The translations under genes and the position numbers were made by a program. Positions 4,952 through 14,276 of a stretch of DNA of 14,342 bases are shown here, piece by piece. Within the stretch, counting starts at the first letter, position 1. Each line of letters starts with the position of its first letter. The notes under the pieces are model-generated. The model ran no database searches. It had not been told where the DNA came from and saw only the letters and a list, made by a program, of their open reading frames with translations. The stretch comes from an uncultured Aquificales bacterium (GTDB lineage: Bacteria > Thermosulfidibacterota > Thermosulfidibacteria > Thermosulfidibacterales > Thermosulfidibacteraceae), in contig CAYVOC010000033.1 in the NCBI GenBank assembly GCA_964453345.1, positions 1-14,342 on the forward strand, read 5' to 3'.

Positions 4952-6228
4952 TACCCCGCTTCTGGTATAATGCGTTGCCCGATCTGCCGAGGCCCCTTGA
5001 TCCGCCTCTGCATCCCAAAACCAGGGAGCCGCTGAAGCCGGAGGACCTCTCCCCGCTTTTTGCGAAGGCCCTTATAGAGCAGGAGATGTCCCACGAGCGC
5101 TGGATAGAGATCCCGGAAAGGGTCAGGGAGATATACTCGCTCTGGAGACCCACTCCCTTGCGCAGGGCCAGAAGGCTTGAGGAGTATCTGGGCACCCCGG
5201 CGAGGATATACTACAAGTATGAAGGGGCAAGCCCCGCCGGAAGCCACAAGCCCAATACTGCGGTGGCCCAGGCCTACTACAACGCCGTGGAGGGGATAAG
5301 GAGGCTCACGACCGAAACGGGTGCGGGGCAGTGGGGCTCCGCCCTTGCCCTTGCCACCAACATGTTCGGGCTTGAGTGCAGGGTTTACATGGTGAAGGTC
5401 AGCTACCACCAGAAGCCCTACCGCAGGACCATGATGGAGGTGTGGGGAGCAGAGGTTGTTGCAAGCCCCAGCAATCTGACCGAGGCAGGTAGAAGGGCCC
5501 TGGAGGAGAATCCGGATCATCCGGGATCCTTGGGCCTCGCCATAAGTGAGGCCGTTGAGGATGCGGTGAGCAATCCGGACACCCACTACACCCTCGGCTC
5601 CGTTCTGAATCATGTGCTTCTGCACCAGACGGTTATAGGGCTGGAGGCGAAGAGGCAGCTTGCGGATGTGGGGGAGTATCCGGACGTGGTTATAGGCTGC
5701 TGCGGTGGGGGATCGAACCTTGGCGGGATAGCCCTGCCCTTTTACGCCGATGTCGCCTGTGGGAAGAAGGTTAGGCTTGTGGCCGTTGAACCCAAGGCAT
5801 GTCCCACCCTGACCGAGGGCCTTTACACCTACGATTACGGGGACGCAGCGGGGATGACACCGCTTTTGAGGATGTATTCCTTGGGATGTGGATTTGTTCC
5901 GCCTGCAATACACGCCGGCGGGCTGAGATACCACGGGGATTCTCCCATAATAAGCCTCCTGGTGAAGGAGGGTATTATGGAGGCGGTGGCCTACTCCCAG
6001 ACGGAGGTCTTTGAGGCGGCGGTGCTGTTTGCAAGAACCGAGGGGATCATCCCTGCTCCTGAGACAGCCCATGCTGTGAAGGCGGCCATAGACGAGGCGC
6101 TGAGGGCGAAGGAGGAAAACAGGGATGGTGTTATTCTGTTCTGCTTTTCCGGGCACGGCCTTCTGGATCTGTCCGCCTATGATGCCTATCTGAGGGGCGA
6201 ACTTAAAGATGCAGATCCTGAGGACTGA
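4948..6228 (+). CDS. trpB2: Tryptophan synthase beta chain type 2 (TrpB2, PLP-dependent)
   Basis: Motifs [20 protein letters not shown] (PLP lysine), [49 protein letters not shown] and [17 protein letters not shown] at 4937-4943; ATGA overlap with the mltG stop. Confidence 0.95.
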
Positions 6229-7276
6229 AAGGTTCGGGGAGGGACTCAGGGCCGAAGAGATAGTTTCCCTGATAAAGGAGCTGAACATTGATCGTGAAGT
6301 CAGGATTCTCAATGTTTGCGGTTCCCACGAGCATACCATATGCAGGTGGGGGCTGAGATCCCTTTTGCCCAAAAACATACGGCTCATTCCGGGACCAGGC
6401 TGTCCGGTGTGCGTTACATCTCAGGAGGACATATACAACGCTATTCTTCTCTCTTGTAGGGATGACACGATTGTTGCCACCTACGGGGACATGATCCGGG
6501 TCCCCACCCGTGCGGGAAGCCTGAAGAGCGCGGGGAAGAACGTTAAGATCATAACCTCGTGCCACCAGGTTTTCGATCTGTGCAGGGAGTTTCCGGACAA
6601 AAAGGTTGTCTTTTTCTCCATCGGTTTTGAGACCACGGCTGCCCCTGCCGCATCCCTCTTTTTTATGAACCCGCCTGCAAACTTTTGCTTTCTGTCTTCC
6701 CACAAGCTCACCACCGCCGCCATGAGAAGCATTATAGATACGGGGCTTGACGCCTTCATAGCGCCGGGGCATGTCTCTGCGGTTGTTGGCTATGAGGTTT
6801 GGGAGGAGTTCCCCCGAATATACGGGATCCCCGTTGTGGTTGCGGGCTTTACCCCGGAGGATGTGCTTCTTGCGGTTGCCGTTATACTTAAGCAGCTGAG
6901 GGAGGGGGAAAGCAGAGTCGAGAATGTTTACACGGGGGTTGTCAGAAGAGAAGGCAATGTGAGGGCAAAAGCCCTGATGGAGAGGGTGTTTGAGGTGGCG
7001 TCTGTGGTGTGGAGGGGGATGGGCAGGGTTCCCGATTCCGGCCTTGTATTGAGGGATGAGTTTGCCGGATACGATGTTAAGAGCTGGCATGGGTGGCAGC
7101 CCTTTGAGGACGAGGAGGAGGCCGGCTGCATCTGTGCCGATGTCATAGTGGGCAGGGCTTACCCCTCCGACTGTGCGCTGTTCGGCAGAAGGTGCACCCC
7201 CCACACCCCGGTTGGTCCCTGTATGGTTTCGGCTGAGGGGGCCTGCAACATCTGGTATAGGTTTGGCGGTTTCTGA
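6209..7276 (+). CDS. hypD: [NiFe]-hydrogenase maturation protein HypD
   Basis: Motifs CGSHEH, GPGCPVC, GFETTA and PGHVS, and the C-terminal Fe-S region C.C...P.DC..F...[15 protein letters not shown]. Confidence 0.96.
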
Positions 7277-7278
7277 AG

Positions 7279-9525
7279 ATGGGGTGCAGCAGGCTGAGGA
7301 TAAGGGTGCTCGGTGCGGTTCAGGGGGTGGGCTTCAGGCCCTTTGTTTACAGAACGGCGAAGGCCTTAGGGCTTAAAGGCTGGGTGAGGAATACGCCCGA
7401 CGGGGTGGAGATAGAGGTTGAGGGAGAGGACCCCTGGCGCTTTGTTGAGGCGCTATACAGGGATAAGCCTCCGCTTGCCACATTTTACAGCGTTGATGTG
7501 GTGAATCTCCCTTGTGCGGGATATCAAGATTTTGAGATAAGGGAAAGCGCAGGACACGGGCCGCCGAAGGTTTTTGTCCTTCCGGATGTATCAACCTGCC
7601 GCTTCTGTCTTGAGGAGATGCGGGATCCTTCAAACAGAAGATACAGATATCCCTTCATAAACTGCACGGATTGCGGTCCCAGGTTCACCATAATAGAGAG
7701 GCTTCCCTACGACAGGCCCAACACCACCATGAGAAAGTTTGCCATGTGCGATGCGTGCAGGGCCGAGTATGAGGATCCTTCAAGCCGGAGGTTCCACGCA
7801 CAGCCCATATCCTGTTTTGATTGCGGGCCGAGCCTGTGGCTGGTGGAGGGAGGTGGCAGGGTGGCCGAGGGGCTTTCGGCCCTGGAGGCGGCAGCCAAGG
7901 CCGTTCTTGATGGGAAGATAGTCGCGGTGAAGGGAATCGGGGGATTTCATCTTGTCTGTCTGGCTGAGGATGCCAGCGCGGTTCAAAGACTTAGAGAGAG
8001 AAAAAAGAGATACCACAAGCCCTTTGCCGTCATGTTTCCCGATCTGGAGACGGTGGAAAAATTCTGTTGCCTTGATCCCGTTGAAAAAAGCCTTCTCTCC
8101 TCTGTGGAGGCTCCCATCGTCATTCTGAGGGGGACCGGGAACCTTCCCGATGCCGTTTCGGGCGGGCTTAAAAGAACCGGGGCCTTTCTCCCCTACTCTC
8201 CGCTGCATCATCTTTTGCTTGAGATGGTGGGAAAACCGGTTGTTGCCACAAGCGGCAACGTCAGCGATGAACCCATGGTTTACAGAAACCGGGAGGCGTT
8301 GCGGAAGCTGTCGGGCATAGCGGATCTTTTCCTGCTGCACGACAGGGACATTGCGAGAAGGTGCGATGATTCTGTCTGCTTTGGGGTTAGGGATAGGAGG
8401 GTTCTGATTCGCAGGGCAAGGGGATTTGCTCCCCTTCCTGTGGAGCTGCCGGGAAGGCTCGACAGGCCCGTTCTGGCGGTTGGGGGGCATCTCAAGGGTT
8501 GCGTTGCCCTTGGGATTGAGGACAGGGCCTTTGTCTCCCAGCACATCGGGGATCTGGAGAGTCCCGAGGCCAGAGGTTTCTTTGAAGATGTGGTGAGGGA
8601 TCTTTCGGAGCTTTTCGGCATAGAGCCGGAGATTGCCGTCGCCGATCTTCATCCGGGCTACTTCTCCACCCGCTGGGCGCTAAAGAACTTTGATGAGGTG
8701 CGCATGTGCCAGCATCATCTTGCCCATGTTCTCTCCTGCGCCTGTGAGTTTGGGCTTGAAGAGTTTATAGGCTTTGCCTTTGATGGGACGGGACACGGGG
8801 AGGATGGCACCGTCTGGGGAGGCGAGGTCTTTTACGTCTCTCCTGAAGGTTGCGAAAGATTCTGCCATCTTTATCCCTTCGCCCTTCCGGGAGGGGAAAG
8901 GGCTGTCAGGGAGGGGTGGAGATGTGCCATCTCCCTCATGCTGCTGGCCGGGGTTGAGCCTCCCTCTTCTTTTGTTGAGAGGGTGGGAGCCGATAGAATT
9001 GAGTTTATCAGGCGGATGCTTCTGAAGGGGATGAGGGTTGTGAGAACCACAAGCTGCGGCAGGCTGTTTGACGGCTTCGCCTCCATGGCCGGTGTTGCGG
9101 ATGTTTCCCACTACGAAGGACAGGCCGCCATGCTCTTTGAGGATTGTGCGGAGGATGTGGAGGGGGCATACACCTTCCCGGTTGATGGGCAAATTATGGA
9201 CTGGCGCTGTGCGGTGGAAGAGGCCGTGAGGGATGTGGGGAGGGGCGTTCCTGCAGGGATTGTATCCGCCAAGTTTCACAACGGCCTTGCGATGGCGATG
9301 CTTGAGGTTGCTGAGGCGGCGAGGGAGCGTTTTGGAACCTCGAGGGTTGTTCTTTCGGGGGGCGTTTTTCAAAATAAAAGACTGCTATCCCTTGCACTTG
9401 ACCTGTTTGAGGAAAGGGGGTTTGAGGTGTATGTTAATCAATCGGTGCCGGTGAACGATGGCGGGATATGTTTGGGACAGATATACTGGTATCTACTTTT
9501 CGGGGATGGCGGGCCATGTGCATAG
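7279..9525 (+). CDS. hypF: Carbamoyltransferase HypF
   Basis: Acylphosphatase domain (GAVQGVGFRPFVY), two zinc fingers (CRFC/CTDC and CDAC/CFDC), YrdC-like domain (KGIGGFHL, KPFAVM, TSGN) and Kae1-like domain (DLHPGY, QHHLAH, DGTGHGEDGTVWGGE, GRLFD, LSGGVFQN, NDGG). Confidence 0.97.
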   Translation: MGCSRLRIRVLGAVQGVGFRPFVYRTAKALGLKGWVRNTPDGVEIEVEGEDPWRFVEALYRDKPPLATFYSVDVVNLPCAGYQDFEIRESAGHGPPKVFVLPDVSTCRFCLEEMRDPSNRRYRYPFINCTDCGPRFTIIERLPYDRPNTTMRKFAMCDACRAEYEDPSSRRFHAQPISCFDCGPSLWLVEGGGRVAEGLSALEAAAKAVLDGKIVAVKGIGGFHLVCLAEDASAVQRLRERKKRYHKPFAVMFPDLETVEKFCCLDPVEKSLLSSVEAPIVILRGTGNLPDAVSGGLKRTGAFLPYSPLHHLLLEMVGKPVVATSGNVSDEPMVYRNREALRKLSGIADLFLLHDRDIARRCDDSVCFGVRDRRVLIRRARGFAPLPVELPGRLDRPVLAVGGHLKGCVALGIEDRAFVSQHIGDLESPEARGFFEDVVRDLSELFGIEPEIAVADLHPGYFSTRWALKNFDEVRMCQHHLAHVLSCACEFGLEEFIGFAFDGTGHGEDGTVWGGEVFYVSPEGCERFCHLYPFALPGGERAVREGWRCAISLMLLAGVEPPSSFVERVGADRIEFIRRMLLKGMRVVRTTSCGRLFDGFASMAGVADVSHYEGQAAMLFEDCAEDVEGAYTFPVDGQIMDWRCAVEEAVRDVGRGVPAGIVSAKFHNGLAMAMLEVAEAARERFGTSRVVLSGGVFQNKRLLSLALDLFEERGFEVYVNQSVPVNDGGICLGQIYWYLLFGDGGPCA

Positions 9526-9821
9526 CGGTTCCCATGAGGATAGTTGAGCTCGACTACCCCATGGCGGTCTGTGAGGCCATGGGGGTCAGAAGAAGGGTGA
9601 ATTTGATGCTGCTCGATGAGGATAGCGTGAAGGTGGGTGATTATGTAGTGGTGCATGTGGGCACGGCCATAGAGGTTATACGGGAAAAAGAGGCGAAGCA
9701 GATCTGGGAGCTGTTCGACCAGCTTTTGGAGGATGGTGGTGCACGAGGCGAGCATAGCCATGAGCCTGATAGAGATGATCTTGAAGATAGCGGAGGAGAA
9801 TTCGGCAAAGAGGGTGCTTAG
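9516..9821 (+). CDS. hypC: Hydrogenase maturation chaperone HypC (HypC/HybG/HupF family) with an acidic, His-containing C-terminal tail
   Basis: Start moved to ATG 9516 to give the family signature MCIAVP; also VKVGDYVVVHVG.AI. 101 aa; the last ~27 codons overlap hypA. Confidence 0.93.
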   Translation: MCIAVPMRIVELDYPMAVCEAMGVRRRVNLMLLDEDSVKVGDYVVVHVGTAIEVIREKEAKQIWELFDQLLEDGGARGEHSHEPDRDDLEDSGGEFGKEGA

Positions 9822-10089
9822 GGTGTTTGTGAGGGTGGGAGAGCTTTCGGGTGTGGTTGTGGACAGTCTGGTTTTTGCCTTTGACGCCCTGAAGGAGGGG
9901 GACGACAGGGTGAAGGATACCGAGCTTGTGGTTGAAAGGGTCCCTGTGAGATACAGGTGCGGGGATTGCGGCAGGGTGTTTGAGGTGGGGCCTCCCTTCT
10001 TTGCCGAGTGTCCCCACTGCGGGGGGATGGGATGTGAGATGGTTTCCGGGGAGGAGCTTGATCTTGTAAACCTTGAGATGGAGGTGTAG
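9739..10089 (+). CDS. hypA: Hydrogenase nickel metallochaperone HypA
   Basis: GTG at 9739 yields the conserved Ni-binding N-terminus MHE and has SD GGAGG at 9728-9732 (6-nt spacing). Also VGELSGV, zinc sites CGDC and CPHC, and C-terminal GEEL; 116 aa. Confidence 0.95.
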   Translation: MHEASIAMSLIEMILKIAEENSAKRVLRVFVRVGELSGVVVDSLVFAFDALKEGDDRVKDTELVVERVPVRYRCGDCGRVFEVGPPFFAECPHCGGMGCEMVSGEELDLVNLEMEV

Positions 10090-10091
10090 CC

Positions 10092-10802
10092 GTGTGCGAT
10101 GTCTGCGGATGCGGAAAACCGGATGGCGTGAGGAGGGTTGTTGCTAATGTGGAGGAGAAGATCCTCAGCAAAAACCAGCAGTATGCCGAACACAACAGGC
10201 GCCACTTTGAGGAGCAGGGTATTGTTGCCGTCAACCTCATAAGCTCGCCGGGCTCCGGCAAGACGACCCTTCTTGAGAGAACCATTGAGGCCCTATCGCC
10301 CAGATACACCATAGGCGTGCTTGAGGGGGACATCGAGACCACCATAGATGCCGAAAGGGTCAGGGCAAAGGGGGCCTATGCGGTTCAGTTGACAACGGGA
10401 GGGGCGTGTCATCTTGAGGCCTCCCTTGTCCACAGGGGGCTTCACGCCCTTGAGCACGAGCTTGACGGCAAAAGGTGCGATCTTATCTTCATAGAGAACG
10501 TGGGTAATTTAGTGTGCCCCGCCTCCTTTGATCTGGGAGAGACGGTGAGGGTGGTTTTGGTTTCGGTGCCGGAGGGGGACGACAAGCCCTTGAAGTATCC
10601 CAAGGCCTTCAAGACCTCCCAGGTCTTTGTGATAACCAAGATAGATCTTGCACCCTACTTCGATTTTTCCATTGATAGGGTCAAGGAGAACGCCCTCTCC
10701 ATCAATCCGGACCTCAAGGTCTTCGCCCTTTCCGCCAAGACCGGCGAGGGGCTTGATGAGTGGATTTCCTATGTTGAATCCCTCGTGGGAGGCGGGGATT
10801 GA
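10092..10802 (+). CDS. hypB: Hydrogenase nickel incorporation GTPase HypB
   Basis: N-terminal CxxCGC Ni site (MCDVCGC), P-loop SSPGSGKT, GGACHL, ENVGNLVCPASFDLGE, EGDDKPLKYP and TKID. GTG start with SD GGAGGTG at 10080-10086. Confidence 0.97.
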   Translation: MCDVCGCGKPDGVRRVVANVEEKILSKNQQYAEHNRRHFEEQGIVAVNLISSPGSGKTTLLERTIEALSPRYTIGVLEGDIETTIDAERVRAKGAYAVQLTTGGACHLEASLVHRGLHALEHELDGKRCDLIFIENVGNLVCPASFDLGETVRVVLVSVPEGDDKPLKYPKAFKTSQVFVITKIDLAPYFDFSIDRVKENALSINPDLKVFALSAKTGEGLDEWISYVESLVGGGD

Positions 10803-11626
10803 TAGGTTCCAGCGAGCTTCTCCTCGTTGTTCTGGTGGCCCTCGTCTTTCTCGGCCCCAAAAGGTTTCTGGAAACGGTCAGGGCGCTTAGAGGGGAGCAG
10901 ACCCCGGATATAGAGCCGCTTAAGGAGCTGAGGGAGGAGGAAGACGAGGGGCTTGTCTTTCACCTTGAGGAGCTGAGGAAGCGGATAATCTATTCCGCCG
11001 TCAGTGTGGTGCCCACGACTGTTCTATGCTTCTTTTACGCTCCTAAGATAATAGACTTCCTCAGGAAGCCCTACGGCGGCAAGCTGATCTTCATTTCACC
11101 CCCTGAGGCCTTCATCGTCAACATAAAGGTTGCCATAGGCGCGGGGATAATACTTGCCTTCCCCTTCATAGCCTATCAGATATGGAAGTTTGTTGCTCCC
11201 GGACTTTATCCCAACGAGAAGAAAATTTTTGTGGGGTTGATTTTCCTTTCCACGCTGCTTTTCGTTGCGGGCATCTCCTTTGCCTACTTCCTCATAGTTC
11301 CCCTCGCCTTCAAGTTTTTGCTGAAGTTTTCCTACAACTGGTTTGAGCCCATGTTCACCGTGGGCAGATACTTCTCCTTTCTGTTCAAGCTGATGATAGC
11401 CTTCGGCGTGGTCTTTCAGACCCCCATAATAGTCATCTTCCTTGTGGCGACCGGGGTTGTCACCGTTGAGGCCCTGTCCAGATACAGGCGTCACATCTGG
11501 GTTGCAAGTTTTGTTTTGGGGGCGGTGCTCACTCCGCCAGATGTCCTCTCGCAGGTGATGATGTCCCTTCCCCTTATCCTGCTGTTTGAGCTGAGCCTCT
11601 TTGCAGGAAGGATGTTTGAGCGCTAA
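10799..11626 (+). CDS. tatC: Twin-arginine translocase TatC with an N-terminal fused TatB/TatA-like domain
   Basis: TatC motifs HLEELRKR, SPPEAF, YQIWKFVAPGLYPNEKK, FGVVFQTP and LTPPDVLSQ...PLILLFE. Residues 1-31 (MIGSSELLLVVLVALVFLGPKRFLETVRALR) match the TatA/B pattern. TTG start overlaps the hypB stop (TTGA), with SD GGAGG at 10788-10792. Confidence 0.92.
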   Translation: MIGSSELLLVVLVALVFLGPKRFLETVRALRGEQTPDIEPLKELREEEDEGLVFHLEELRKRIIYSAVSVVPTTVLCFFYAPKIIDFLRKPYGGKLIFISPPEAFIVNIKVAIGAGIILAFPFIAYQIWKFVAPGLYPNEKKIFVGLIFLSTLLFVAGISFAYFLIVPLAFKFLLKFSYNWFEPMFTVGRYFSFLFKLMIAFGVVFQTPIIVIFLVATGVVTVEALSRYRRHIWVASFVLGAVLTPPDVLSQVMMSLPLILLFELSLFAGRMFER

Positions 11627-12051
11627 CCGGCCTGCCTGCCCATGAGTTCCGCTATGAGTTTCACCTCGCTTATGGGGATGTTCAGTTCCGATGCCACATC
11701 GGCCGGGCTTTTACCCTTGCTCAAAAGGTGCTTTGCAAGCTCCCTTTTCTGCTTCTTCTCGCTCTCCTTTCTGCCGATGGATTCGGAAAGCATACGCAGC
11801 TTCTTTTCCACCTCAAGCTCCAGCTTTTTTAATTCTTTTATGGCCTTGTCCCTTTCGTAAACCACCAGATCCGCTGCTGCGGATAGCTCCTTCGCCTTAT
11901 CCTCTATGAGGACCTTCAGCCTTTCCTCGGCGGAGAGGACCCTTTCAAGATCTTCCTTCTCTACCCTTCGCCGGGATAGCAGAAAAAAGAGCAGCACCAC
12001 CACAACCACATCAAAGAGGATCTGCAGGGTCAGGAACACCTTGAGAAGCAT
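11623..12051 (-). CDS. Membrane-anchored coiled-coil protein with C-terminal HTH (DUF2802/DUF6115/SwrB-like, possibly motility associated)
   Basis: N-terminal TM helix (ILFDVVVVVLLFFLL followed by RRR), central coiled coil, and C-terminal HTH-like GKSPADVASELNIPISEVKLI. Its ATG overlaps the PilZ gene stop (TGATG). The family assignment rests on architecture only. Confidence 0.65.
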   Translation of the reverse strand: MLLKVFLTLQILFDVVVVVLLFFLLSRRRVEKEDLERVLSAEERLKVLIEDKAKELSAAADLVVYERDKAIKELKKLELEVEKKLRMLSESIGRKESEKKQKRELAKHLLSKGKSPADVASELNIPISEVKLIAELMGRQAG

Positions 12052-12623
12052 CAGCTTTTGCCCAGGGATCTTCTTGCCAGAAGTTCTCTCTGTTTGATGA
12101 AGACAAACTTTATGAGATCTTCTCTGTCGTCCTCTTTTATAAATTCAAAGGCCACTCTGATGAGATACTCCGCACCCTTCTTTTCGCAACTCACCACCTT
12201 CCCCAGCACCCTTATTCCGGATTTGGGAAAGAGGGGCACGCCTATCACTATATCCAGCAGGGTGTTCGGCGCTATCTGCTCCTTCCACAAAAAGGAAAGT
12301 CCCCCGCCCCCAAGATCGTTGGTTATCGCCCTGTGGGCGTAGGAGACCTGGCATGATGTTTCCAGCCTCTCCTCAAGCTCCTCCAGCTTCTTTTTGATAT
12401 AGACCAGAAGCTCCAGCAGGATGGGGTTTACCTCCTTGGTCTCCTGAAGCTTGTGCTTTTCCATTATGAGCTTGCTGAAGGCTTCAACATCCCTGTAGGT
12501 GTCCTCCTCACTTCTGTTGATGGATTCAACCACCCTCTCCTTGTCTTTGGGATCCACCGGATTGAAGCTGATCTTCACAGCAACCGGAACCCTTACGAAT
12601 TCTCTTTTGCCTGTGTTTTGCAT
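12051..12623 (-). CDS. PilZ domain protein (putative c-di-GMP receptor)
   Basis: RxxxR (R7-E-F-V-R11), variant D/NxSxxG motif (DLGGGG at D103), beta-barrel strands (GIRVLGKVV, YLIRVAFEFI) and C-terminal helix REDLIKFVFIKQRELL. SD GGGAGGT at 12634-12628. Confidence 0.85.
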   Translation of the reverse strand: MQNTGKREFVRVPVAVKISFNPVDPKDKERVVESINRSEEDTYRDVEAFSKLIMEKHKLQETKEVNPILLELLVYIKKKLEELEERLETSCQVSYAHRAITNDLGGGGLSFLWKEQIAPNTLLDIVIGVPLFPKSGIRVLGKVVSCEKKGAEYLIRVAFEFIKEDDREDLIKFVFIKQRELLARRSLGKS

Positions 12624-12944: not shown

Positions 12945-14276
12945 ATGGAGGAGCAGCTGAGGAAGATTGCTGTGGCACTGATTGAGGTGGCTCTCCGCCA
13001 TCTTTCAAGGGACGAGATTGAAGAGATCATTGATACCGTAAAGTTTTCAGACGACCCTCAGGAGCTTGAGGAGCTTTACAGCAGACTGGAGGGGTTGCTC
13101 GAGGCCGGCAAACCTGAGGCTGAGGGGATTCTGGAGGAGGCCGGCAGAATCATCAGAGAGCTTGCGGAGATCGTGGGGGTTGATCCCCTTGAGATCAGGA
13201 CGCCCACAGATGCAGCCGAGGCCATAAAAACCATAGGAGAGCTGGTTTTTCTCGCAAGGGATCGTTTCGACTGTGTGGAGAGGGAGCGGATAGAGCGCAT
13301 AAAGGATTACATAAGGGATTTGATCACGCAGATAGGCTCCCGGTATCAGGGGACGGATGTCAACATCATTATTCAGTCAGCCCTTGACAGAATAGAGAAG
13401 GATGAAAAGGCCATCTTCAATCCCGAAATATACAAGCGCATACAGGACCTCATACTGGAAAGGGAAAAGGAGCTTGAATCCGAGAGGGCCAAGGTCAGGG
13501 AAAGGCTGAAACTTGTGATAAAGAGCATCGTGGATTCCCTCAACTCCCTTGGCAAATCCGAGGCAGCCATTGTGGATTCCCTCAGCGAGCATGTGTCGGG
13601 CATAGAGAGCATCATAGCCCTGGATAATATAGATGAGATAACAGATAAACTCGCTCAGCTCGCAAAGGATCTGAGACGCACTATTTCTAAGGTGAAGGAG
13701 GAGATCGGCAGAACGAGGGCCGAACTGCAAAGGGCTCAGAAACAGCTTGAGGAGCTGAAGCAGGAGGTTGAGAAATACAGGGAGCGTTCCATCATAGATG
13801 AACTGACCCAGATCCTGAACAGAAGGGGAATAATGGATCTGCTTGTGAGGGAGCTTGCAAGAAGCAAAAGGTTCAACACTCCCCTGTCCGTTTTGATGCT
13901 TGATATAGACGACTTCAAGGCGATAAACGACACCTACGGCCACATAGTTGGAGACAAGGTCCTCAGAGCCATCGCTTCCATAGTGAAGAATAATCTCAGG
14001 ATCACGGATGCCGTTGGTAGATACGGGGGAGAGGAGTTTCTGGTGGTTCTTCCCGATACCGATGCGGAGGCCGCACTTGTTGTGGCCGAGAAACTGAGAA
14101 AGGCTGTGGAAAAGAAAGTTTACAAATACAGGGACAGCACCTTTAAGGTGACGGTCAGCATCGGGGCTGCACAGGCAAAACCAGAAGACACTCCCGAAAG
14201 CCTCATAGATCGGGCTGACAAGGCCCTTTATCTTTCGAAACAGGCCGGGAAGAACAGGGTGACCTTGGCGGAGTAA
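12945..14276 (+). CDS. Soluble diguanylate cyclase (helical/coiled-coil N-terminus plus GGDEF domain)
   Basis: DELTQILNRR, DIDDFKAINDTYGHIVGDKVL, I-site RITD five residues before GGEEF, VTVSIG and RADKALYLSKQAGKNRV. About 275 N-terminal residues are charged and helical, with no TM segment. Confidence 0.95.
   Translation: MEEQLRKIAVALIEVALRHLSRDEIEEIIDTVKFSDDPQELEELYSRLEGLLEAGKPEAEGILEEAGRIIRELAEIVGVDPLEIRTPTDAAEAIKTIGELVFLARDRFDCVERERIERIKDYIRDLITQIGSRYQGTDVNIIIQSALDRIEKDEKAIFNPEIYKRIQDLILEREKELESERAKVRERLKLVIKSIVDSLNSLGKSEAAIVDSLSEHVSGIESIIALDNIDEITDKLAQLAKDLRRTISKVKEEIGRTRAELQRAQKQLEELKQEVEKYRERSIIDELTQILNRRGIMDLLVRELARSKRFNTPLSVLMLDIDDFKAINDTYGHIVGDKVLRAIASIVKNNLRITDAVGRYGGEEFLVVLPDTDAEAALVVAEKLRKAVEKKVYKYRDSTFKVTVSIGAAQAKPEDTPESLIDRADKALYLSKQAGKNRVTLAE

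Follow-up and report, generated by a model that had tools for sequence, protein, structure and literature searches.

The window analyzed here is a 14,342-nt stretch of contig CAYVOC010000033.1 (assembly GCA_964453345.1), to whose forward strand all window coordinates refer. It encodes a 275-residue protein in which a TatB-type module and a TatC protein, components of the pathway for twin-arginine translocation (Tat), are joined in a single chain. Our reading as a whole, to which we assign a probability of roughly 78%, is that this gene is a natural TatB-type/TatC fusion of single origin, that it supplies the only TatC and the only TatB-type unit of its genome, and that it serves as a general receptor for twin-arginine signals. 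The gene, its immediate upstream signals, and its protein segments are as follows.

10799..11626 (+): fused gene joining a tatB-type module to tatC; 275 codons and a stop (open reading frame [ORF] table, Pfam)
10092..10802 (+): hypB, encoding a CobW/HypB/UreG GTPase (Pfam cobW, E 3.7e-25; ORF table)
10787..10792 (+): Shine-Dalgarno-like GGGAGG, 6 nt before the TTG and within the 3' end of hypB (read from the sequence)
10802..10852 (+): TatB-type transmembrane (TM) helix, residues 2-18, IGSSELLLVVLVALVFL (TIGR01410, alignment to TatB in the PDB, AlphaFold2 [AF2] helix 4-18, invariant G3 and E6)
10853..10858 (+): Gly19-Pro20 hinge (aligned to Escherichia coli TatB G21-P22)
10859..10894 (+): short amphipathic helix, residues 21-32, KRFLETVRALRG (AF2 helix 20-31, invariant R31, hydrophobic moment)
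10895..10960 (+): acidic, poorly conserved linker, residues 33-54 (homologue comparison, AF2)
10961..11623 (+): complete TatC core with six TM helices, residues 55-275 (Pfam, TIGR00945, Foldseek, E. coli residue mapping)

Translation of the fused gene meets no in-frame stop codon across 10799..11626. The start codon is a TTG that shares the four letters TTGA with the end of hypB, and this overlap of the hypB TGA stop with the tatBC start is consistent with translational coupling. From codon 2 to H55, the sole in-frame ATG, GTG, or TTG is the GTG of codon 13. An earlier sequence-only reading of this stretch had described one uninterrupted 275-codon frame, a TTG start with a Shine-Dalgarno sequence and coupled to the hypB stop, and no alternative start between codon 14 and H55; each of these details was reproduced. 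Orthologues start with ATG or GTG at the corresponding M-[IL]-G, giving ATG, GTG, or TTG as the start among the eight fused genomes of the phylum, window included.

The fusion is not confined to this contig. A whole-genome search covered 41 genomes and returned matches in 27; the phylum was represented by 18 genomes from three families. All eight phylum genomes with a readable TatC N-terminus (G000, the window genome, with G002, G005, G006, G010, G011, G014, and G015) carry the same in-frame fusion, and these eight span the three families. TatC is cut by contig ends in two others (G001 and G008), and one (G009) retains only an N-terminal fragment at a contig end. Unfused TatC was found in none of the 18 phylum genomes searched. 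A TatC match was absent from 7 of the 18, and rerunning the Pfam TatC model on five of these (G003, G004, G007, G012, and G016, three of which are 92-94% complete) again yielded none (0/5). Judged by these gene searches, the Tat pathway may be wholly absent in some members of the phylum.

In the protein database, we retrieved 19 full-length fused clusters (55-100% identity, 99-100% coverage) plus one 155-aa fragment. Precomputed PF02416 annotations are present on 17 of the 19 full-length fused homologues, compared with 0 of the next 100 TatC proteins among the matches listed. The closest named homologue, P0004 of Thermosulfidibacter takaii ABI70S6 (279 aa), belongs to a different genus or species and shows the same architecture, with 78% identity across 99% of the length; it carries precomputed PF00902 and PF02416 yet is annotated only as "sec-independent protein translocase protein TatC." A search limited to residues 1-75 returned the query's own cluster alone (one protein among 430 candidates). 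In a quick maximum-likelihood tree built from the TatC part alone (91 rows, made up of the 19 fused proteins plus 72 unfused ones out of 101 listed matches), the fused proteins form one branch with a Shimodaira-Hasegawa-like approximate likelihood ratio test (SH-aLRT) value of 100, which is consistent with a single origin.

The nucleotide data give the same picture. In four public runs, drawn from four studies and including one that may be the source sample, contigs span positions 10700-11700, junction included, without one inserted or deleted letter. The runs listed for this sequence included none of RNA. Seven variants fall within the gene in these contigs, all of them synonymous and in third codon positions. 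The sequence-only reading had named relatives and sequencing reads as the places where a stop or frameshift in the linker might surface; neither the relatives nor the contigs of the four runs contain one. Within the TatB segment, the proportion of nonsynonymous differences (pN, 0.20-0.36) lies below that of synonymous differences (pS, 0.50-0.86) in six of six codon-level pairs; because most pairs are saturated at synonymous sites, we rely on the inequality pN < pS alone.

The TatC portion is intact. Residues 55-258 match PF00902 along profile positions 2-208 of 208 (236 bits, E 5.1e-70, gathering score 25.1), and TIGR00945 scores 222.6 bits against a cut-off of 132.7. The AF2 model of the whole fusion has a predicted local distance difference test (pLDDT) value of 87.5 and a predicted template modeling score (pTM) of 0.83. 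Its top seven Foldseek matches are all TatC, with PDB 4b4a at a target-normalized TM-score of 0.86 and a root-mean-square deviation of 2.5, a result that concerns the TatC fold alone and is uninformative on the extra helix. The nearest solved structure is Aquifex aeolicus TatC (PDB 4b4a, 4hts; E 4e-47), which is unfused; the alignment begins at query residue 50-52. The core is likewise homologous (E 3.4e-41) to TatC of the E. coli (TatBC)3 complex (PDB 9dzz/9e01; Deme et al. 2026, PMC13323110). HMMER alignment against 9dzz_A equates H55, E58, F131, Y137, and E140 with the E. coli signal-contact residues H12, E15, F94, Y100, and E103, and T245 and Q252 with the polar-cluster residues T208 and Q215. 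All seven are invariant in the 19 fused homologues, so the signal-binding and polar-site residues that the sequence-only reading had recognized by motif are present and can be placed on E. coli TatC. E. coli M205 corresponds to A242. As a minor observation, the cluster representative P0002, listed as 100% identical, has R where window residue 220 is G (...LVATGVV...), a one-residue variant within a 90% cluster.

Profile scores place the N-terminal module with TatB, not TatA. With residues 1-54 searched, the NCBIfam tatB model TIGR01410 matches residues 2-30 at 33.8 bits (E 3.8e-8), against the whole fused protein it gives 30.9 bits, and profile positions 3-31/32 of 80 are covered; the tatAE model TIGR01411 reaches 13.8 bits on residues 1-54 (E 0.032). 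The tatB model thus scores 20 bits above tatAE on the fused module, and the preference is reversed in the two free TatA proteins of the genome. Among the 19 fused homologues, the tatB model matches all 19 and the tatAE model 3. A search of the PDB with residues 1-54 at E <= 10 returned four sequences, all of them TatB chains and none TatA (E. coli 2mi2 and 9dzz_B, N. salsuginis 9e02_F, and M. xanthus 9e03_B). In these alignments, query residues 2-32 correspond to TatB 4-34, and thus E6 to E8 and G19-P20 to G21-P22 of E. coli TatB. The hinge reads Gly-Ala in both free TatA proteins, in contrast to Gly19-Pro20 of the fusion. G3, E6, G19, P20, and R31 are invariant in 19/19 fused homologues.

Structure prediction outlines the same segments. 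AF2, run on a 91-sequence alignment, places a helix at residues 4-18, a second at 20-31 (pLDDT about 84), and a long helix at 39-79. The hydrophobic moment of residues 20-31 is 0.51-0.55, compared with 0.03 for the TM helix, and the amphipathic helix is only ~12 residues long. From these comparisons, we conclude that the N-terminal module is best described as a truncated TatB-type unit, comprising the TM helix, the hinge, and the start of the amphipathic helix, and no full TatB equivalog. The single-chain TatB-type/TatC fusion with a minimal TatB that was first proposed from the window, with a glutamate in the TM helix and a Gly-Pro hinge after the TatB pattern, therefore stands: it is in frame in 8/8 genomes, prefers the tatB model, and keeps its hallmark residues throughout. 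The expectation that the TatC and TatA/B/E Pfam models would both hit was borne out in part, as the TatC model matches strongly, whereas PF02416 matches residues 2-30/31 below its gathering score and TIGR01410 is significant but below its cut-off.

Module and core are joined by a divergent tether. The spacing from R31 to H55 varies from 17 to 31 residues among the fused homologues and is net acidic in 19/19. Mean pairwise identity across these homologues is 26% in the linker, 54% in the TatB segment, and 72% in TatC. AF2 predicts the second half of the linker (from residue 39) to be helical and continuous with the TatC N-terminal helix and TM helix (TMH) 1, with a pLDDT of 67-68 across residues 31-50. 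The alignment of the 19 homologues contains no conserved cleavage motif in the linker.

Several observations weigh against our interpretation. The N-terminal module lies under every curated cut-off: TIGR01410 scores 33.8 against an equivalog cut-off of 56.5 bits, TIGR01411 is held to 53.9, and PF02416, whose match to residues 2-30 covers profile positions 1-29 of 53, falls short of its gathering score of 21 both with the whole protein (13.7 bits) and with residues 1-54 by themselves (18.1 bits). The TIGR01410 shortfall arises because only ~30 of the 80 model positions exist in the fused protein. PF02416 matches at E <= 0.1 in just 12 of the 19 fused homologues. The TatA and TatB families are close, and the free TatA proteins of the genome also match the tatB model (42.9 and 36.6 bits in one search, 39.7 and 38.5 bits in another). 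In E. coli TatB, residues 1-63 are modeled as ordered, with a far longer amphipathic helix (available text of PMC13323110); as that helix takes part in clamping the signal peptide in E. coli, full TatB function is not assured for so short a version. The docking geometry proposed below is carried over from E. coli by analogy, and the linker of two orthologues (L010 and L011) contains an ATG in frame.

Some of these points would fit a TatA-type fusion, in which the module is a tethered TatA that sits at the TatB site or seeds TatA oligomers, the system being TatA~C plus free TatA. TatA can take exactly the TatB site on TatC: in the N. salsuginis TatAC structure (PDB 9e07), a single helix of the TatA family lies in TatC's groove between TMH5 and TMH1, and the short, probably mobile amphipathic helix of the fused module resembles TatA behavior as described in the same work (PMC13323110, available text). 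TatA and TatB form one Pfam family, and by BLASTP the module is 41-43% identical to the TatA proteins encoded in the same genome. The two-component TatAC system differs in that its chains are separate and its helix is of TatA type, whereas the window genome adds two free TatA proteins and the fused module scores as TatB. With the 20-bit preference for tatB and its reversal in the free TatA proteins, the invariant Gly-Pro hinge set against their Gly-Ala, and four of four PDB matches to TatB, we regard a TatA-type module as unlikely. Substrate is bound only by TatB-containing complexes in PMC13323110 (Fig. 5i), which would make a genome devoid of TatB function odd.

A second alternative holds that the N-terminal helix is the leftover of a decaying tatB, a mere membrane anchor, with one of the free TatA paralogues doing the work of TatB. 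The truncated amphipathic helix, the family scores under their cut-offs, the lower identity of the TatB segment relative to TatC, and the existence of two TatA paralogues all lean that way. Decay is hard to reconcile with E6, G19-P20, and R31 remaining invariant in 19/19 homologues from three families, with pN below pS in every pair, and with retention of the polar-cluster partners T245 and Q252; both free paralogues, in turn, score as TatA/E above cut-off and have the TatA-type hinge. A degenerate remnant is, on balance, quite improbable.

We consider it very unlikely that the fusion is genetic only, with internal initiation or proteolysis in the linker releasing separate TatB and TatC proteins. 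The linker is variable, acidic, and modeled with low confidence, the linker ATG of the two orthologues offers a possible restart, and a TatA of Providencia is processed by a rhomboid protease (PMC3712462, available text). Against release stand the lack of a conserved cleavage motif and the window gene itself, which offers no ATG, GTG, or TTG from codon 14 to H55. Four of eight genes compared have no start codon past codon 30 before the conserved His, so internal initiation cannot be a conserved mechanism. A sequencing error joining two adjacent genes has precedents in the database entries P0245, P0227, and P0261 discussed below, but the same fusion in eight independently assembled genomes and in protein P0004 of the complete T. 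takaii genome, the indel-free public contigs, and the purely synonymous variation leave such an artefact almost no probability.

We also looked for comparable fusions elsewhere. A profile built on residues 1-110 and run against 1.84 billion representative proteins gave 1471 matches at E <= 1e-3, of which the best 150 were listed; Pfam was run on 28 of those 150, namely those with an internal TatC start or an N-terminal match. P0245 was rejected as a natural fusion owing to frameshift-like junk between its TatA and TatC parts. The Chloroflexota representatives P0227 and P0261 were rejected as fixed fusions, as no fused gene matched them in related loci and an unfused TatC frame of 250-276 aa was present in 18/18 informative loci. 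The fusion in P0170 is contiguous on one metagenome contig (1/28 loci), and many other profile matches are truncated fragments. A predicted 362-aa TatA/B+TatC protein from an unrelated lineage is encoded on one metagenome contig (L059, 2025-3110); its linker is long and acidic, its TatC part has extra residues inserted in periplasmic loop 1, and a separate tatA-like gene precedes it. Among the best 150 of the 1471 matches, sporadic fusions outside the Thermosulfidibacter lineage are neither confirmed nor excluded. Among the candidates checked, the Thermosulfidibacter lineage holds the only fixed, lineage-wide fusion that was verified.

We found no paper on a natural TatB-TatC fusion, only on engineered ones, in a literature search that left subscription journals, supplements, and InterPro architecture lists outside its range. 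Neither "fusion" nor "fused" occurs in the main text of a TatC diversity survey (PMC3827258). Engineered E. coli TatB-TatC fusions support Tat transport (Bolhuis et al. 2001, as cited in the available text of Cleon et al. 2015, PMC5102672) and share with the window protein the placement of TatB N-terminal to TatC in one chain. They contain full-length TatB (to residue 166 or beyond) and show partial dominant-negative behavior (PMC5102672, available text), whereas the window fusion is natural, minimal, and fixed in its lineage. The latter is a variant of the known Tat receptor, the fusions found in the literature being engineered.

The Tat gene inventory of the genome bears on the role of the fusion. 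The assembly is 99.9% complete in 64 contigs and contains one TatC, the fusion. No free TatB above the TIGR01410 cut-off was found in this genome. Two free TatA genes lie on contigs C1 and C25 (tatAE 67.7 and 63.5 bits, above the 53.9 cut-off); it was thus correct that no separate tatA or tatB is in the window, and the two tatA genes are elsewhere. Free TatA above cut-off was found in four of five relatives tested, with none found in G002. The tatA gene on C1 (C1:76749-76898, -; L001) lies ~2 kb from genes for a molybdopterin oxidoreductase and a ferredoxin-type subunit (C1:79006-82354, +; L038) and directly upstream of a radical S-adenosylmethionine-like ORF that, judged by eye, resembles MoaA.

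A crude motif scan of all frames followed by Pfam, which may have missed others, identified at least four proteins with a twin-arginine motif, which belong to two enzyme systems. One C20 operon, which also has genes for NrfD, the large subunit, and a maturation protease, encodes the small subunit of a [NiFe]-hydrogenase (SRRDFLK) and a 4Fe-4S protein similar to HybA (GRRNFLK). On C1, the molybdopterin oxidoreductase (SRREFLK) and the ferredoxin-type subunit (SRRNFLA) both have twin-arginine motifs. Among relative loci holding the start of the fused gene, hypB lies upstream in one of seven (L009, same genus only), and tatA adjoins the fusion in three, directly upstream in L006 and L013 and directly downstream in L010. 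As far as gene order tells, the position behind hypB is a local rearrangement. The proposal that the fusion is dedicated to exporting a periplasmic [NiFe]-hydrogenase is thus not upheld, given a single genomic TatC, twin-arginine proteins outside the hydrogenase, and hypB adjacency in 1/7 loci. A sole TatC alongside at least four twin-arginine proteins of two systems, with hypB linkage in one genus, points to a general Tat receptor instead of a hydrogenase-specific one, as would be expected of the organism's only TatC and only TatB-type unit.

These observations can be assembled into a working model. The chain is predicted to have seven TM helices with its N-terminus outside and would run from a truncated TatB module (TM helix with Glu, Gly-Pro hinge, ~12-residue amphipathic helix) through a ~20-residue acidic tether into a complete TatC. 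In the E. coli (TatBC)3 complex, each TatB TM helix is flanked on one side by TMH5 and the TMH5-6 loop of a TatC and on the other by TMH1 of the next, E8 of TatB bonds T208 and Q215 of TatC, and the amphipathic helix of TatB rests against the N-terminal end of TatC TMH1 and contributes to clamping the signal peptide (PMC13323110, available text). By analogy, one TatC would flank the fused helix with its TMH5 and TMH5-6 loop, E6 pointing toward T245 and Q252, and another TatC would flank it with TMH1. The TMH1 contact would probably be to its own chain because the tether is short; with the TMH5 contact to a neighbor, this would give a domain-swapped trimer with TatB:TatC fixed at 1:1. The two free TatA proteins would provide the translocation step. 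We suggest that neighboring tatB and tatC genes were most likely joined on a single occasion, in the ancestor of the Thermosulfidibacter lineage.

Relative to E. coli, the fusion keeps every named signal-binding and polar-cluster residue of TatC and aligns to TatB 4-34, including E8 and G21-P22. It differs in being one polypeptide whose TatB part ends at about residue 32, followed by ~20 acidic tether residues, whereas E. coli TatB is a 171-aa protein. Its stoichiometry is set at 1:1, unlike the native TatA1B2C3 core inferred for E. coli, where excess TatB expels TatA and blocks transport (PMC13323110, available text); a 2024 paper also argues against TatB and TatC being held strictly at 1:1 (PMC11178869, available text). 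Such stoichiometry models meet a natural test case in a covalent 1:1 TatB-TatC receptor that evolution has fixed alongside two free TatA proteins; the fusion also suggests a minimal TatB of TM helix, hinge, and ~12 amphipathic-helix residues. A thermophile origin, a homologue in cultured T. takaii, and a nearest solved TatC from Aquifex make this protein an attractive target for structural work on a stoichiometrically homogeneous receptor. The current "TatC"-only naming makes genomes of the phylum seem to lack TatB.

A bolder extension, which we hold to be possible though doubtful, is that every TatC in the phylum is tethered to its own TatB as a natural "tethered-switch" receptor. If so, a TatA1B2C3 core could form only if an attached TatB helix swung out of its groove; the choice would lie between all three TatB sites staying filled during transport and a TatB-to-TatA exchange inside the complex. 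The minimal functional TatB would then be ~32 residues.

Upstream of the fusion, one detail differs from its earlier description as the end of a hydrogenase maturation cluster: the genes run hypD-hypF-hypC-hypA-hypB in that order (6209-10802), with unrelated housekeeping genes before them (ribBA, ribH, nusB, der, mltG, and a pyridoxal phosphate enzyme by Pfam). hypE is not in the window, and the structural hydrogenase operon is on a separate contig (G000:C20, locus L039). The hypC gene (9516-9821) has its canonical MCIAVP start at codon 17 of the ORF as listed and, past its Pfam domain, a ~34-residue C-terminal tail that runs into the beginning of hypA (9733/9739-10089) for about 83-89 nt; hypA would open with the usual M-H-E motif if started at the GTG at 9739, not the ATG at 9733.

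Downstream and convergent with tatBC is an ORF of 142 aa (11623-12051, -) that shares 4 nt with the tatBC end and has weak DUF6115/DUF2802 matches. It is followed by a gene for a PilZ-domain protein (12051-12623, -) and, divergently, one for a GGDEF diguanylate cyclase (12945-14276, +). From these domain matches, the region looks like a small cyclic di-GMP signaling neighborhood.

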